The notes under the pieces are model-generated. The model saw only the letters and a list, made by a program, of their open reading frames with translations, ran no database searches and had not been told where the DNA came from. From assembly GCA_041497675.1 (NCBI GenBank), contig JBGQGY010000001.1:1-64000 (forward strand): 64,000 nt of DNA. The letters run 5' to 3'. Made by a program: the position numbers and the translations under genes. Shown here piece after piece: positions 7,149 to 12,471 of the stretch. The DNA comes from a bacterium. Its GTDB lineage: Bacteria; Sysuimicrobiota; Sysuimicrobiia; Sysuimicrobiales; Humicultoraceae. The number at the start of each line of letters is the position of its first letter. Positions within the stretch are counted from its first letter, which is position 1.

Positions 7149-7937
7149 ATGCAACGGGTGTGGGCCGGTCTCATCGATTTGTTGTTTCCCCCGCGGTGCG
7201 CCGGGTGCGGCGCGCGGGGTGCGTGGTTTTGCGCGCGGTGCGAGGCCACGCTGGCGTGGATGCGGCCGCCGGTGTGCGAGCGGTGCGGCGACGCGCTCGC
7301 GGGCGATCCGAACGGGGCCGCGTACTGCGATGCGTGCTGTCGCACGCCGCCCGCCTTTGCTGTCGCCCGGTCGCTGGCGGCGTACGACGGCTCGCTGCGC
7401 CAGGCCATTCACGCGTTGAAGTATCGACAGCAGAGGGCGGTGGCTGAGCCGCTGGGAGCGTTGCTGGCGCGCGCCGTGCCCTGGGAGGTGGCGGTGGGGG
7501 TCACGGCCGTCGTGCCCGTCCCGCTTCATCCCGCCCGTCAGACGACCAGAGGATTCAATCAATCGGCGCTGCTGGCCCGGCCCGTGGCCAGGGCGCTGGA
7601 CGTGCCGGTCGTGCCACACGCGATCCGCCGGGTGCGCCAGGAAGCGTCCCAAGCCGGCCTCGGCGCAGCGGCGAGGCGGCGAAACGTGCTGACCGCGTTC
7701 GAACCGGATAGCGTCTCGGTCGCCGGCCGCGTCTTGCTGATTGACGACGTGTTCTCGACCGGCGCGACCGCAGACGCGTGCGCGCGGGCCCTCCTTGCCC
7801 GGGGGGCCGCCAGCGTGGGCGTCCTGACGCTGGCGAGGGCCGTGCTGCGACTGACGGTGCATGACTGGAAGTCGGGTGGCGGCAGCCGCACCGTGACGTT
7901 GGTCCCCCAAATGTCCTCACCGGGTGCCGATAGATGA
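7149..7937 (+). CDS. comF: ComF family phosphoribosyltransferase-like protein with double zinc ribbon
   Basis: LFPPRCAGC, CERC/CDAC, VPVPLH, RGFNQS, LLIDDVFSTGAT. Confidence 0.9.
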   Translation: MQRVWAGLIDLLFPPRCAGCGARGAWFCARCEATLAWMRPPVCERCGDALAGDPNGAAYCDACCRTPPAFAVARSLAAYDGSLRQAIHALKYRQQRAVAEPLGALLARAVPWEVAVGVTAVVPVPLHPARQTTRGFNQSALLARPVARALDVPVVPHAIRRVRQEASQAGLGAAARRRNVLTAFEPDSVSVAGRVLLIDDVFSTGATADACARALLARGAASVGVLTLARAVLRLTVHDWKSGGGSRTVTLVPQMSSPGADR

Positions 7938-7952
7938 GACCGGGGGACACCA

Positions 7953-8222
7953 ATGCGGATGATCTTCGGCCTGCTGATTCTTGTGGTCTGTATCGCGCTG
8001 ACGGCAGCGTGCGGGGCGACGGGGCGTCCGCCCGTGCTCGCCGCAGGCGCCCAGGGTAGCGGGGAACCGCACTCCGTCGAGGCGGAGTCGCAGCGCCGGT
8101 TTCACTCCGCGGCCATCACCTCACGCATGCTCGTGTCGATCGCCCAGATGCTGGGAGGCATGAGGGTGCCGATCGTGCTCGACGGCCGCGGATCGCAGAC
8201 ACTCTTCGATCCGGACCGGTGA
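7953..8222 (+). CDS. Small exported protein/lipoprotein, putative second peptide precursor
   Basis: Hydrophobic N-terminus with lipobox-like LTAAC; stop overlaps next start (GTGA); ends LFDPDR like the 9047 protein (VFDPAN). Confidence 0.6.
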   Translation: MRMIFGLLILVVCIALTAACGATGRPPVLAAGAQGSGEPHSVEAESQRRFHSAAITSRMLVSIAQMLGGMRVPIVLDGRGSQTLFDPDR

Positions 8223-8971
8223 GCGCTTCCCACGGCGTCGGCCGCGGGGCGAGGACCGCTCTCGTCTGGTCCGCCGCCGCTGCCGTGATCCAGTGGACGG
8301 TCACCGAGTTCACGCTGAGGGGTCCGCTCACTCACCTGCTTGTTGAGGGCCTCCGAAAGACCGGCACGGTGCTCTCGCCGCCCAACCGGCTGGAAGTCAG
8401 TGCGTTCCTGATCGCACCGATCACGATCGCGCTCGGCGCGATGTGTGTGCTTCGAGCCCGCCGGGACGGTCTCACCCCGTTGGGCCTCGGGTACCAGTGC
8501 GATCGGCGGCGCGTGGCCGCAGGGGCACTGGGGGGCGTTGCGACCCTGATGGTGTCCGCCCTGGCCGTCATGGCCGACTCCTGTCTGTTTGCCGCGCCGG
8601 CGATTCAAGAACGGTTCATGACACGGGTGAGCGCCGCCGCGATACCCGCGCTCGTCGCCCTCGTGCTGGGCAACGGCGTGCTGGTCCCCGTCGTGGAAGA
8701 GTTCGCGTGGCGCGGGTACATCCAAACGCGTCTGGTGGGCGCGTGGAGTCCCACGGCGGCCGTGGTGACGACCGCCGCACTGTTTGCGCTCAAGCATGTC
8801 GTGGTGGATGGGTCCGTCGTCCGGATGACCACGCTCCTGACCGGCGCATTCACGCTTGGGCTCATCGGGTACCGATATGGCACCGCGGCGTCGACGATGG
8901 CGCACGTGATCCTCAACGTCACTGGGACCGCGGCATCCGTCGCCGCCACCTTCTTGATTGCGCCCCCGTGA
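8219..8971 (+). CDS. CPBP (CAAX/Abi) family intramembrane metalloprotease
   Basis: EEFAWRG, FALKH and HVILN motifs; multiple hydrophobic segments. Confidence 0.9.
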   Translation: MSASHGVGRGARTALVWSAAAAVIQWTVTEFTLRGPLTHLLVEGLRKTGTVLSPPNRLEVSAFLIAPITIALGAMCVLRARRDGLTPLGLGYQCDRRRVAAGALGGVATLMVSALAVMADSCLFAAPAIQERFMTRVSAAAIPALVALVLGNGVLVPVVEEFAWRGYIQTRLVGAWSPTAAVVTTAALFALKHVVVDGSVVRMTTLLTGAFTLGLIGYRYGTAASTMAHVILNVTGTAASVAATFLIAPP

Positions 8972-8992
8972 ACTCACCGGTCCGGCGTCGAT

Positions 8993-9016
8993 GGACATGA
9001 GTGCACGATCATGTCC
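8993..9016 (+). promoter_or_regulatory. Perfect inverted repeat upstream of the precursor gene (operator or 5' RNA hairpin)
   Basis: GGACATGA-N8-TCATGTCC. Confidence 0.5.
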
Positions 9017-9046
9017 TGGGCCCGGTGGCCCAAGGGAGGGATGGAG

Positions 9047-9460
9047 ATGAAGTGGTTGAGCATGTTGATCCTTGTGGTGGGGTTGGTGACTGGTGTCGCC
9101 GTTCATGGGTCCCGTGCGGCGCCCATCGCGCGACACAGCGTCGCGTTTGCGCAGTGCCCGGAGGGCGGCGCGGCGGGTGACGCCTGCCAGGCGCTGACCT
9201 CGCGGCTGGCGTTGGGCGTCGAGGAAGGACCGGGAGACTACATCGGCGTCGTGTCGGCGATTGGCGCCGTGGGCGCGAACGAGGCCGGCATCATCGGCGC
9301 CGGAGGCGATATCAGCCCGGACCGGTGGGTGGCCGTCGCGCTGGCGGCGATGGAAGTCGCCAGAGCGGTCTTCCAGAACTGGGACAGGTTCTTTGGGCAT
9401 GACATGGCCCTGGGGCCGGGCGTTCCCGTTTTTGATGGAGTATTTGATCCCGCCAACTGA
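9047..9460 (+). CDS. Secreted peptide precursor (SdpC-like role by context)
   Basis: AAGGGAGG RBS; signal peptide; C-x9-C pair; amphipathic RWVAVALAAMEVARAVFQNWDRFFG; directly upstream of sdpA/sdpB-like genes. Confidence 0.7.
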   Translation: MKWLSMLILVVGLVTGVAVHGSRAAPIARHSVAFAQCPEGGAAGDACQALTSRLALGVEEGPGDYIGVVSAIGAVGANEAGIIGAGGDISPDRWVAVALAAMEVARAVFQNWDRFFGHDMALGPGVPVFDGVFDPAN

Positions 9461-9463
9461 GGG

Positions 9464-9499
9464 GAAGGGGAGGGGGCGCGTCGGGCTTCCCTCCCCTTC
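9464..9499 (+). terminator. Strong intercistronic hairpin without U-tract (mRNA stabiliser or partial attenuator)
   Basis: GAAGGGGAGGG (9464-9474) pairs with CCCTCCCCTTC (9489-9499). Confidence 0.6.
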
Positions 9500-9524
9500 A
9501 CACGCGGCGAAAGGAGATGTCGTG

Positions 9525-10172
9525 ATGCGCAACCTGTTGACGGCGTGGCTTGCGGCCTCGGTGATGACCATCGTGTCGGCCGTCTACCTTGTCAGCGCCC
9601 TGCTGTATCTGGCGCCGCCCAATCCCGTGACGCTGCTCCACCTGCCGGCCATTCGGGGCCTGCTGCACCCGTTCTTCGCCCAGAACTGGCACCTATTTGC
9701 GCCGAATCCCATTCGGATGAATCTGGTGCTCACGGTGCGGTGCAGCACCGGCGCCCAGGTGACACCCTGGCTCGACCCCTTCACGCCGTGGTTGGCCCAA
9801 CACCACCGCAATCGGTTCTCGCCGATGGGCAAGATGCTGCGCGTCCCGCAGAATGCGATGTTCGCCGTCCTGGGACGGTCCGCGGACGAGTGGCGGCCGC
9901 TGATCTGCCGGCGGACGCCTGAGGCGCCGATGTGTCGGGGCGAGGACCCCGCCTCCCGGCGGCAGCGCGATCTGGGGGTCTTCATCCTGCAGCGCGTCGG
10001 TTCGGCGGTGTGCGATCAGGTCGCCGGTTCGGGGCGCGTCCGCTACGTGCAGCCGCGCATCCTGATCCACGAGCCGCCACCGTGGTCGAAGCGCATGTTG
10101 CCGGCCGGCGCCGGCTCGACGAAGTATCTGCCCCTCCCGTGGCTGCCCTACGTGCCGGTGAGCGGGTCCTGA
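9525..10172 (+). CDS. DUF5819 / SdpA-like membrane-anchored protein
   Basis: N-terminal TM, APPNP, PFFAQNWHLFAPNP motif; AAGGAG RBS. Confidence 0.8.
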   Translation: MRNLLTAWLAASVMTIVSAVYLVSALLYLAPPNPVTLLHLPAIRGLLHPFFAQNWHLFAPNPIRMNLVLTVRCSTGAQVTPWLDPFTPWLAQHHRNRFSPMGKMLRVPQNAMFAVLGRSADEWRPLICRRTPEAPMCRGEDPASRRQRDLGVFILQRVGSAVCDQVAGSGRVRYVQPRILIHEPPPWSKRMLPAGAGSTKYLPLPWLPYVPVSGS

Positions 10173-10190
10173 GTGGGAGGACGTGGCGGG

Positions 10191-11498
10191 ATGATCCGAC
10201 CGATGTCCTGGCTGGTCACGGAGCACTGGCTCATCGGGGCGAGCCTAATGCGCGTCTCCCTGGGTGTGTGGGCCGTCTACTACTACCTGTTGCATTGGGG
10301 AGTCCGCCGAGAGTTGTGGGGGCCGGCCGGTGTCCTGCCGTTCGAGAAGTTCCTCGAGAGCGGTCCCCGGATCAACGTGTTCCAGTGGAATTCGTCGCCA
10401 CTCTACTTCGAAGCCGTCTATGCGGCGGCGATCCTCATTGCGGTGGCCGTAGCCATCGGCTATCGGTCGCGCCTCATGCTCCCGCTGCACTGGCTGATGA
10501 TCTGGTCGCTGCAAGAACGCAACCAGTTATTGGGCGATGGCGGGGATAACATCATGCGGATCGTCTTGTTGTTCCTGGCGTTGGTCGACACCGGGGCCCA
10601 CTTTTCACTCGATGCGTTGCCCGCAACGCGGTCGTCGCGGTGGGGATGGCGGGACGCCGCGCGCGCCCTCTGCGAGCGCAACCGGGCGGCTCAGGCCGTC
10701 GTGCACAACTTCGGGGTCCTGCTGATCCTCGCCCAGTTGTCGTTGCTGTACATGAGTACCGGTCTGTATAAGGTGATGGGGGAACTGTGGCAGAGCGGGA
10801 CGGCCGTCTACTACATCCTGCGCGTCGATGAGTTTTCGTGGCCGGGTGCCGAGGTGATCTACCGCAATCCCTACTTGGTCGTCCTGGCCACCTACGGGAC
10901 GGTCCTCTTCGAGCTGATGTTCCTGCCGTCCCTCTTCAATCGATGGACCCGCTATGCGACGATTGTGGCTGGGATCGTCTTCCACGCGAGCATTGCCCTG
11001 GTGATGGGGTTGGTCACGTTCGCCTGGAGTATGGCGAGTATCTACCCGCTGTTGGTGACCGACGAGGAGTACGCCATGGCCGACACATGGTTTCGAAGGC
11101 GCTTCGGGCTTACGGCCCTCTACGATGGGTGGTGCCCCGCGTGCCTGCGCAGCGTCCGATGGCTGTCGCGGTGCGACCTGTTGTCGCTGGTGACGTTTGT
11201 CTCGTTTCGCGACCCCGGCGTCGTCGAGCGGTACGGGGTGGATGCGGGGCGGGCCGCGCAGCGGATCCACAGCATCGACGCGGCCGGCCGGGTGCGCGAA
11301 GGCATCGACGCCATGATCGCTCTTGGGGGCCGGACGGCCGTGCTGTGGCCGCTCGTCCTGCTCTTCTGGCTGGCGCGTCTGGCGGCGGGCCAGCGATTCT
11401 ATGATGCGGTTGCCTCTCGGCGGGTCATCCTGATCCCGGGGGTGTGCGCGAATCACTGCGCCACCGGGCCACCGGCGGCCCGGCGCCAGCCCAGCTGA
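10191..11498 (+). CDS. HTTM domain (SdpB-like) membrane protein fused to a DCC1-like (DUF393) thiol-disulfide oxidoreductase
   Basis: RNQLLGDGGDN, QLSLLYMSTGLYK...WQSGTAVYY, FHASIALVMGL; C-terminal LYDGWCPAC...GIDAMIAL...FYDAVASRR. Confidence 0.85.
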   Translation: MIRPMSWLVTEHWLIGASLMRVSLGVWAVYYYLLHWGVRRELWGPAGVLPFEKFLESGPRINVFQWNSSPLYFEAVYAAAILIAVAVAIGYRSRLMLPLHWLMIWSLQERNQLLGDGGDNIMRIVLLFLALVDTGAHFSLDALPATRSSRWGWRDAARALCERNRAAQAVVHNFGVLLILAQLSLLYMSTGLYKVMGELWQSGTAVYYILRVDEFSWPGAEVIYRNPYLVVLATYGTVLFELMFLPSLFNRWTRYATIVAGIVFHASIALVMGLVTFAWSMASIYPLLVTDEEYAMADTWFRRRFGLTALYDGWCPACLRSVRWLSRCDLLSLVTFVSFRDPGVVERYGVDAGRAAQRIHSIDAAGRVREGIDAMIALGGRTAVLWPLVLLFWLARLAAGQRFYDAVASRRVILIPGVCANHCATGPPAARRQPS

Positions 11499-11523: not shown

Positions 11524-12471
11524 TCAGCGGTGGATCGGCGGCAGCCGGTTCACGGTGGTGAGACCGGGTGGCGCCGCGACCACAATAGGCGCGGCGTTGA
11601 CGGCCAGCGCGCAGGTGGCCACGTCGCCGTGGATGCCGCCGTCCACCGTCACGTTGATCGGCGGTTCGCCGTCGATCAACACGCTGTCGCGCGGGTTGGA
11701 CACGCCCACGGCCATGGTGAGGTCGAGCGTGATGATGGGCTGACCGGCGCTGGTACCCACGGCGACCTGGTGCAGGCCTTTCACGGTCGCGCCATCTACC
11801 ACGGGATCGATGCGTTCGGTGACCGTGTCCACCGTCCAGCCGAGCGAGTCCGCGATCATCGCGATGGATTCCTTGAGACCGACGTGACCGATCGTGCCTT
11901 CGGCGACGCCCCGCTCGAAGGTGGGGCGATCCATGCCCGCCCCGACCTTGCGTTGGAGCGGCAATCGGCGGCGTCCGGCATCGACCACGCGGACGATGCG
12001 AATCGCGCGGATCGCGCGGCACGGCGCGGTCAGGACGATCGGGAGCAGGTCCATGACGTAGCCGGGGTTCACGCCGAGTCCCACGACGGTCACGCCGTGG
12101 GCCATTGCGGCGGTGTCGATCCGGCGCGCGTGCTCCGCGTGATGCTGCCAGGGAAACGCCAGCTCTTCACACGTCGAGATGACGTTGGCGCCGGCGGCGA
12201 CAATCTCGAGTAATTGGGGAGTGGTACGGGCGAGTTGGGACTGGGTGGTATGGAACACGACCAGTGGACGCCCCGCCAGCGCCGCCGACGCGTCTGCGGT
12301 GACCGGCACCCCGATCGCGGCGCGTCCCAACAACGTGCCGAGGTCCTTGCCGATCTTCTCGGGGTCGATGTCGACCGCACCGAGCACGCGGTGGCCCCGC
12401 TCGAGGGCCACCTCGGCAATGCCGAGGCCGATGGGGCCCAGACCATAGTGGGCGACGGTCACTGACGTCAT
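11524..12471 (-). CDS. NAD(P)H-dependent amine dehydrogenase / 2,4-diaminopentanoate dehydrogenase-like (DapB-like N-terminal domain)
   Basis: GLGPIG, NVISTCEEL, GVNPGYVMD, GHVGLKES, GGIHGDVAT. Confidence 0.8.
   Translation of the reverse strand: MTSVTVAHYGLGPIGLGIAEVALERGHRVLGAVDIDPEKIGKDLGTLLGRAAIGVPVTADASAALAGRPLVVFHTTQSQLARTTPQLLEIVAAGANVISTCEELAFPWQHHAEHARRIDTAAMAHGVTVVGLGVNPGYVMDLLPIVLTAPCRAIRAIRIVRVVDAGRRRLPLQRKVGAGMDRPTFERGVAEGTIGHVGLKESIAMIADSLGWTVDTVTERIDPVVDGATVKGLHQVAVGTSAGQPIITLDLTMAVGVSNPRDSVLIDGEPPINVTVDGGIHGDVATCALAVNAAPIVVAAPPGLTTVNRLPPIHR

Follow-up and report, generated by a model that had tools for sequence, protein, structure and literature searches.

Small exported proteins with a Phe-Asp tail are candidate substrates of a DUF5819/HTTM-DCC1 system related to SdpAB

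Certain exported precursors yield secreted toxins only when SdpAB or YitPO is present (PMC6818787), and the linaridin proteins LinG (or a LinH fusion) and LinL, a transmembrane HTTM-type protein and a small partner, are needed for modification of a ribosomal peptide (bioRxiv 10.1101/2020.07.09.196543; PMC9927463). The steps that SdpAB, YitPO and LinG/LinL carry out are still unexplained (PMC6818787; bioRxiv 10.1101/2020.07.09.196543). In human GGCX, the luminal residue K218 is the catalytic base (bioRxiv 10.1101/2025.02.09.637231). MloH, a bacterial HTTM enzyme fused to a region that structurally matches DUF5819 (bioRxiv 10.64898/2026.08.19.745780), performs alpha-carboxylation of an aspartyl residue in malonomycin biosynthesis (PMC12186529). 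For Melghirimyces thermohalophilus, AlphaFold 3 predicts that a DUF5819 protein docks onto an HTTM-DCC1 protein to give a GGCX-like complex; the accessible part of that preprint names no substrate and does not mention precursors, accessory peptidases or a hairpin (bioRxiv 10.64898/2026.08.19.745780). Here we describe a five-gene cluster at positions 7953-11498 of a 64,000-nt stretch (the window; contig JBGQGY010000001.1 of assembly GCA_041497675.1, a bacterium of the Humicultoraceae, Sysuimicrobiota) that encodes a DUF5819 protein, an HTTM-DCC1 fusion, a CPBP protease and two small exported proteins sharing a Phe-Asp (FD) tail. We consider it probable that the cluster is a maturation system for small Sec-exported proteins in which the DUF5819 and HTTM pair acts on the FD tail and the DCC1 domain and CPBP protease are accessory, and it is best read as related to the SdpAB and linaridin systems.

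The preliminary description of this DNA proposed five co-oriented genes between comF and a convergent dehydrogenase gene, among them a CPBP protease and an oxidoreductase built into the HTTM protein. The open reading frame (ORF) list and a Pfam scan place all five genes on the + strand at the coordinates that it gave, Pfam hits identify both flanks, and family matches together with intact motifs (below) confirm the protease and the oxidoreductase. The features are as follows:

7149-7937, 5′ flank of the cluster: ComF, with DZR_2 and Pribosyltran domains (Pfam)
7953-8222, + strand: small exported protein of 89 aa (ORF; G+C content at third codon positions, GC3)
8219-8971, + strand: CPBP/Rce1-like intramembrane protease (PF02517, E = 7.6e-13, 49 bits against a cut-off of 22.4)
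9047-9460, + strand: secreted protein of 137 aa, the main candidate precursor (signal peptide; no family match)
9464-9499, + strand: G+C-rich stem-loop (folding energy against shuffles)
9525-10172, + strand: DUF5819 protein of 215 aa (PF19136, E = 3.5e-18, 67.2 bits against a cut-off of 27.1)
10173-11498, + strand: HTTM-DCC1 fusion of 441 aa (PF05090 and PF04134; translation could equally begin at 10191, which has a GGAGG site)
11524-12471, - strand, convergent 3′ flank: 2,4-diaminopentanoate-dehydrogenase-like gene (domain scan)

The cluster genes are tightly packed, with the stop codon of the 89-aa gene overlapping the CPBP start (GTGA), and GC3 is 0.80-0.89 in each of the five. A good ribosome-binding site precedes both the 137-aa gene (GGGAGGG, upstream of the ATG at 9047) and the DUF5819 gene.

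Both small proteins of the window end in [L/V]FDPxx. A Sec-type signal peptide opens the 137-aa protein, which also contains two conserved Cys (AFAQC...C), a Gly/Ala-rich stretch and an amphipathic helix and ends in GVFDPAN. Homologs occupy the same slot in sister genomes, and its nine close database relatives are all annotated as hypothetical, none with a Pfam domain. It matched no Pfam or NCBIfam family, and in a Protein Atlas search with it the top score was 0.83, for unnamed clusters that gave no lead. The 89-aa protein has an N-terminal hydrophobic, lipoprotein-like signal (LTAAC), the C-terminal module RVPIVLDGRGSQTLFDPDR and the tail TLFDPDR, and the GC3 of its ORF is 0.83 in frame versus 0.69 and 0.54 in the other frames. 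BLAST found no match to this gene in other genomes of the phylum. Because its last ~20 residues align with the module GLP[IL]x[LV][DE]...[LIVMF]FDPxx of sister precursors, the 89-aa protein is nevertheless best read as a second, divergent precursor. Across the 54290 ORFs of the genome (3.97 Mb in 272 contigs, 98.6% complete), an FDP tail occurs on just seven, namely both window genes, three ABC permeases and two apparently spurious ORFs, and the 89-aa and 137-aa proteins are the only ones of these with a signal peptide. The permeases end in ...RD[LA]FDPR[LM].. (C17:3600-5078, C87:2812-3732 and C94:10871-11818) and form a false-positive class for motif scans. Separately, two paralogous exported proteins of ~150 aa in the same genome end in ...GYLVVLDP[SL]R (C23:33876-34370 (-) and C26:8614-9192 (-)); this tail recalls LFDPxR with Leu for Phe, and as the genes lie away from the cluster it may be a coincidence.

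FD-tailed proteins recur beside DUF5819 genes far outside the window's phylum. A DUF5819 alignment search found at least 575 relatives among species-representative genomes, and 79 loci, from the best 80 of these, were analysed. A DUF5819 gene is followed by an HTTM gene in 78/79 loci from many phyla, the exception (L123) stopping at a contig edge. In at least six phyla, a signal-peptide ORF whose tail reads hydrophobic residue, F or L, D and 0-4 further residues lies immediately 5′ of the pair. The tail [AVILMF]FD plus 0-3 residues is carried by 33/182 ORFs that end just upstream of DUF5819 (28/74 loci) compared with 6/6643 ORFs elsewhere in the same loci (P = 1.6e-47, Fisher's exact test, overstated because the loci are related). 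Together with the recurrence of the enzyme pair and the co-occurrence of the CPBP gene (below), this enrichment led us to reject chance adjacency. When longer tails, AFD/ALD variants and one downstream case are counted, a candidate precursor is present in 32/40 loci outside a Streptomyces-rich "type-2" group, and four of the eight loci lacking one have less than 350 nt of upstream sequence at contig edges. The preliminary description had held that DUF5819/HTTM pairs without secreted small ORFs as neighbours would speak against it; such neighbours are present and share a common C-terminal motif.

Carriers of these candidate precursors include Bacillus, Virgibacillus, Viridibacillus, Terribacillus, Brevibacillus and Paenibacillus among Bacillota, and also Streptomyces, Sorangium and metagenome-assembled genomes (MAGs) of the Ardenticatenaceae, Vicinamibacterales (precursor downstream), a proteobacterium and Polyangia (tail RALD). 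The signal-peptide heuristic was passed by 32 of the 34 candidates that we aligned, and their middle regions are Gly/Ala-rich or cationic and amphipathic. Tandem copies are common, occurring in the window and at L034, L057, L058, L061 and L069. In Paenibacillus alvei TS-15, an ABC transporter separates two full FD-precursor/DUF5819/HTTM systems arranged back to back (L060:633-2746 (-) and L060:5434-8121 (+)). No Pfam or NCBIfam model covers the FD-tailed proteins in a scan of the 34 candidates. The NCBIfam model BamI touched 3/34, but with 20.9 bits (cut-off 180) over positions 1-65 it matched nothing beyond the signal peptide and was discarded. An exosortase- or myxosortase-type C-terminal sorting signal was also rejected, because no membrane helix follows the FD motif.

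Within the window's phylum the cluster has a fixed chromosomal position. DUF5819 is present in 23 of 94 sampled phylum genomes and in 18/33 other genomes of the window's family (f1), tallies that include the unpublished genomes G017 and G024. The order ComF-CPBP-precursor-DUF5819-HTTM/DCC-dehydrogenase recurs among the 15 family-level loci compared, with the CPBP gene sometimes shifted downstream of HTTM (e.g., Ca. Geohabitans). All 15 of these loci have a candidate precursor, with the tail [LIVMFA]-F-D plus 2-4 residues, of which the first is nearly always P. The candidate precursor is the fastest to diverge, with 31-50% identity to the window within the family compared with 47-65% for DUF5819 and 56-68% for HTTM-DCC. 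Strain contigs from four DNA runs differ from the window by 4-14 substitutions and no indels over 7900-9500; in the 89-aa gene they carry just one synonymous and one R-to-P change, which is not enough to assess selection. One low-depth metagenome contig (run X7) has A>G at window position 9460, the last base of the TGA stop codon of the 137-aa gene, giving TGG; the stop (TGA or TAA) is kept in other strain contigs. In the phylum's second family (f4), ORFs with Gly/Thr repeats (GGTTGGTSGGT...) precede distant DUF5819/HTTM-DCC pairs (L044:6490-7275 (-) and L045:6510-7133 (-)) and might encode a linaridin-like, Thr-rich substrate.

A hairpin separates the main candidate precursor from the enzyme genes. 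It occupies 9464-9499, directly after the stop codon of the 137-aa gene and before the DUF5819 ribosome-binding site, and the 73-nt stretch that contains it folds at -35.5 kcal/mol (z = -2.28; 4/200 shuffles fold as well). An equivalent hairpin follows the precursor stop in 14/15 related-locus slots including the window (z from -1.84 to -4.68), with none at L002, and its sequence differs between loci. Because none of these hairpins has a T-run, the window hairpin is not a canonical intrinsic terminator. It is likely to be an attenuator or mRNA-stabilising element. Such hairpins are known behind the precursor genes of peptide operons, and by that analogy its presence fits a product made in excess over its enzymes.

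The enzyme gene encodes a fusion whose top structural matches in PDB are GGCX. A membrane domain at about residues 1-310 matches HTTM (PF05090, 37.5 bits against a cut-off of 27.7), and a thioredoxin-fold domain at about residues 316-418 is DCC1-like (PF04134, 53.6 bits against 27.8) with its DxxCxxC motif intact (DGWC321PAC324, nt 11124-11144). A profile of 17 HTTM relatives matched human GGCX at E = 3.1e-10; a single-sequence phmmer search of PDB with the HTTM-DCC protein found nothing, GGCX being reached only by the profile. Residue K200 (nt 10770-10772) is a putative catalytic Lys, conserved in at least 90% of the 17 relatives and aligned with the second Lys of GVKKLD, which is GGCX K218 (chain-numbering offset 31). 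The AlphaFold2 model of the fusion has a predicted local distance difference test score (pLDDT) of 88 and a predicted template modelling score of 0.83, and its top 15 Foldseek matches in PDB are all GGCX (E from 1.7e-5 to 7e-3, ~300-327 columns), followed by weak thioredoxin-fold/DsbD-C matches for the C-terminal domain. A DGGDN motif (residues 122-126) is specific to the bacterial proteins, with no counterpart in GGCX. A periplasmic location of the DCC1 domain is suggested by how the helices are ordered in the model and by the luminal placement of GGCX K218; a hydropathy scan was too crude to assign it to one membrane side. Since the genome encodes MenA (202 bits), menaquinone is plausibly available to the enzyme; MqnA was not found in this genome.

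The partner protein begins with a membrane helix, continues with the invariant P.NP...F.QNW.LFAPNP and ends in an extracytoplasmic domain. The best VIA-wide Z obtained with its model was 4.7, for the N-terminal helix only. A complex prediction of HTTM-DCC, DUF5819 and the mature precursor, run without controls, scored 0.00 with partner pLDDT below 50, a score that counts neither for nor against a complex. In a quick tree of 89 HTTM domains, the window falls in a 26-row clade (98% support), 23 rows of which have FD precursors, while a 38-row Streptomyces/Kitasatospora clade, the type-2 group, has none. Ten type-2 Streptomyces loci without an FD-tailed ORF (L076, L083, L085, L090, L091, L100, L101, L112, L119 and L120) share a stretch ~150-500 nt upstream of DUF5819, one frame of which reads ...LPTDRSFGS.xSMVSRxPVGCQPCG-stop; it could be the tail of another, Cys-containing precursor or a conserved RNA or DNA element.

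We propose that both precursors (137 and 89 aa) are exported bearing a tail of a hydrophobic residue, Phe and Asp, here FDP plus two residues, and that a two-subunit membrane enzyme of DUF5819 and HTTM recognises or modifies this tail at the outer face of the membrane. The enzyme would resemble a split version of vitamin K-dependent carboxylase that has kept the catalytic Lys. The fused DCC1 domain probably recycles a quinone cofactor or the redox state of the enzyme and probably makes no substrate disulfides, and CPBP would be this lineage's dedicated processing peptidase, with a transglutaminase-like or beta-lactamase-fold enzyme in its place in other lineages. The hairpin probably keeps precursor mRNA above enzyme mRNA. 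By analogy with SDP and YIT, and in view of the Gly/Ala-rich or cationic amphipathic middles, the mature product may be a membrane-active secreted peptide.

Several observations weigh against this proposal. The enzyme pair occurs without an FD-tailed ORF in three fully flanked Thermoactinomycetaceae loci (L073, L080 and L109). F and D are the only invariant columns in the alignment of 34 candidates, but the set was partly chosen by the motif itself and this invariance is circular for the alignment, a circularity that the slot-enrichment test (33/182 vs 6/6643) does not share. SdpA-type and type-2 Streptomyces relatives use other precursors, and the substrates of the wider family are not uniform. 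The 89-aa gene is confined to the window's genome and near-identical strains. The DUF5819 model (pLDDT 71.6) has no structural relative, with no Foldseek match at E ≤ 0.001 and a best E of 0.3. Finally, a fixed chromosomal site would be less usual for a bacteriocin island than the mobile-element surroundings in Bacillota and Streptomyces; a transposase, phage-type integrase or serine recombinase adjoins FD systems in Streptomyces, Viridibacillus and Paenibacillus (L057:8035-9252, L064:3838-4956 and L078:4030-5142).

In the window's family the CPBP protein appears to be a dedicated part of the system. It retains all three catalytic motifs, EExxxR (VEEFAWR), FxxxH (FALKH) and HxxxN (HVILN), and its best NCBIfam matches are Mrt-type CPBP models, all under their cut-offs. 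Within family f1, a CPBP ortholog is present in 15/19 DUF5819-positive genomes and in 0/15 DUF5819-negative genomes (13/17 and 0/15, respectively, without the unpublished G017 and G024), with co-variation inside four genera, and it is because of this co-occurrence that we regard the protein as dedicated to the system. The four positive genomes without CPBP comprise three truncated or incomplete assemblies and one fragment, and the CPBP gene lies within the locus in 12/13 related loci with flank available. Elsewhere, 14/27 loci scanned have a peptidase-like partner (Transglut_core in six, Beta-lactamase PF00144 in five, Beta-lactamase2 in two and CPBP in one).

CPBP might trim the longer FDPxx tail, or it might confer immunity. 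Bacteriocin immunity is often attributed to CPBP/Abi proteins, and a role in protecting the producer against the mature peptide, in place of processing, would agree with its strict co-occurrence with the system and with the ORF list and domain scan of the window, in which no other immunity candidate is visible. This is the alternative to which we give most weight, and we still think it unlikely. All three catalytic motifs are intact, and peptidase-like enzymes of unrelated fold stand in the equivalent place elsewhere, which better fits a shared catalytic task. Furthermore, two to four residues follow the Asp in 14/14 precursors of the window's phylum, the CPBP lineage, compared with none or one in 20/20 outside it, although this is a single lineage.

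One possibility, which we put forward speculatively and hold to be unlikely, is that the invariant tail Asp is itself the reaction site. The split enzyme would use menaquinol and oxygen to generate a strong base that takes a proton from this Asp, which would then be either carboxylated, as by MloH, or inverted to D-Asp. DCC1 would be the built-in recycling reductase, making a one-protein vitamin K cycle, and CPBP, or the transglutaminase-like or penicillin-binding-protein-fold enzyme of other lineages, would trim or transfer the modified tail. If true, the FD-tailed proteins would give bacterial vitamin K-carboxylase homologues their first family of ribosomal substrates and would offer a handle on the unexplained chemistry of the SdpAB and linaridin enzymes.

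A different role for the tail is as a docking motif, with the FD proteins serving as accessory subunits, plugs or regulators of an enzyme that really acts on something else, such as a lipid, a quinone or a component of the cell envelope. Conservation of the motif between phyla, in proteins that otherwise vary, is what a docking element should show. In addition, the enzyme pair stands without an FD-tailed ORF at three loci, and the GGCX-type substrate channel is blocked in the published model (bioRxiv 10.64898/2026.08.19.745780). However, tandem duplication, fast evolution and a hairpin favouring over-expression are traits more like those of precursors than of subunits, and the homologous SdpAB and YitPO systems work on exported precursors (PMC6818787). 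We therefore judge docking to be an improbable explanation.

DCC1 is fused or adjacent in at least 20/40 non-type-2 loci. HTTM-DCC1 could instead be an oxidative-folding module, a quinone-linked fusion like DsbB/VKOR-thioredoxin that forms a disulfide in exported proteins with two Cys. Such a module would explain the intact CxxC of DCC1, the weak thioredoxin/DsbD-C fold matches and the presence of at least two Cys in all 14 precursors of the window's phylum. However, 17/20 precursors outside the phylum have no Cys, with DCC1 fused or adjacent at many such loci, and for this reason DCC1 is unlikely to serve substrate disulfides, recycling of the cofactor or of enzyme redox state being the more economical role. 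The invariant feature is moreover the FD tail and not Cys, and the carboxylase-type catalytic Lys is conserved, which leaves oxidative folding with a slim chance of being correct. Two Bacillales genomes also have a DCC1-like gene immediately next to an SdpA/SdpB-type operon (L127:949-1329 (+) and L128:876-1250 (-), with motifs YDSWCPLC and FDSDCLHC), and the DCC1 link thus reaches classical Sdp-type systems. Lastly, a Phr-type quorum-sensing pheromone released from the C terminus of an exported pro-protein is very unlikely: the proteins are small and exported with a conserved C-terminal end, and LuxR-type regulators and histidine kinases flank L049, L053, L058 and L066, yet a pheromone should have a species-specific tail while this one does not change between Bacillota and Myxococcota, variation falls in the Gly/Ala-rich or amphipathic middle, and the loci share no conserved receptor gene.

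Together, these results favour the maturation of FD-tailed proteins by the DUF5819/HTTM pair, part of which has precedent. The enzyme pair and its likeness to GGCX are already in print as a prediction (bioRxiv 10.64898/2026.08.19.745780), and maturation of the SdpAB type is known (PMC6818787). We found no description of the FD-tailed precursor family in family libraries or in the literature, the latter searched outside subscription journals and preprint supplements; nor did the literature searched describe the positional link to one DUF5819/HTTM branch, the accessory DCC1/peptidase pattern or the hairpin. Homologues of vitamin K-dependent carboxylase occur widely in bacteria, with at least 575 DUF5819-linked loci among species-representative genomes, and no ribosomal substrate of theirs is known. 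The cluster and its relatives provide a concrete candidate substrate with a mutable, two-residue invariant motif that can be traced by mass spectrometry in tractable hosts (Bacillus and Streptomyces), and indicate that the system also includes a DCC1 thiol oxidoreductase and a peptidase of variable type.

Compared with SdpABC and YitPOM, the cluster appears related but distinct. The preliminary description called it SdpAB-like with precursors that do not resemble SdpC, and these likenesses held to different degrees. For SdpB the resemblance is clear, in that the HTTM half matches the SdpB model TIGR04033 (E = 5.9e-22) and shares 27% identity with an SdpB/YitO-like protein, but at 78.6 bits against a curated cut-off of 178.4 it is a relative and not a member of the SdpB family, and in the quick tree SdpB-type proteins form a separate clade (100% support). 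For SdpA only a remote relation through the N-terminal module stood. The DUF5819 protein had no direct match to SdpA models (PF17418/TIGR04034; E ≤ 10 in Pfam and E ≤ 1 in NCBIfam), and hhalign of DUF5819 with six SdpA-family proteins gave 86.4% probability (E = 4.7e-6) over 60 N-terminal columns only, a region that comprises the membrane helix and the QxW.[LF]F..NP motif. Like SdpABC and YitPOM, the system has a small single-pass partner bearing an N-terminal helix and this motif, and a Sec-exported precursor. The precursors are indeed unlike SdpC, with no SdpC hidden Markov model match and with a different tail and gene order: here the precursor gene comes first in the operon and its product has an FD tail, whereas there the SdpC/YitM-like gene is last. 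For example, the third gene of the SdpA-type operon in Bacillus spizizenii encodes an SdpC/YitM-like product that ends in ...VDELN, with no FD tail. The cluster has no SdpC/YitM-type third gene and, as the preliminary description also noted, no SdpI/SdpR-type gene was seen among the neighbours scanned.

The other described systems each share a part of this architecture. Linaridin loci differ in that the five window genes show no LinE-type alpha/beta-hydrolase domain in a Pfam scan, and the precursors here have Sec signals and an FD tail whereas linaridins have their own leaders and a Thr-rich core. The Melghirimyces thermohalophilus pair has the same DUF5819 and HTTM-DCC1 architecture and falls in the same 26-row clade (98% support) as the window, but its locus (L073) is one of the three without an FD-tailed ORF. 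Human GGCX resembles the HTTM domain by profile and fold, with K218 kept as K200. GGCX is nevertheless one polypeptide, to which a luminal propeptide-binding domain is fused, in place of which a separate DUF5819 protein is proposed (bioRxiv 10.64898/2026.08.19.745780), while the candidate substrates here are without a propeptide or Gla domain, DCC1 is fused and DGGDN is extra. MloH, which was compared by description only, acts on a polyketide-nonribosomal peptide intermediate and not on a ribosomal exported protein, but its target is an aspartyl residue and the invariant residue of the FD precursors is likewise an Asp.

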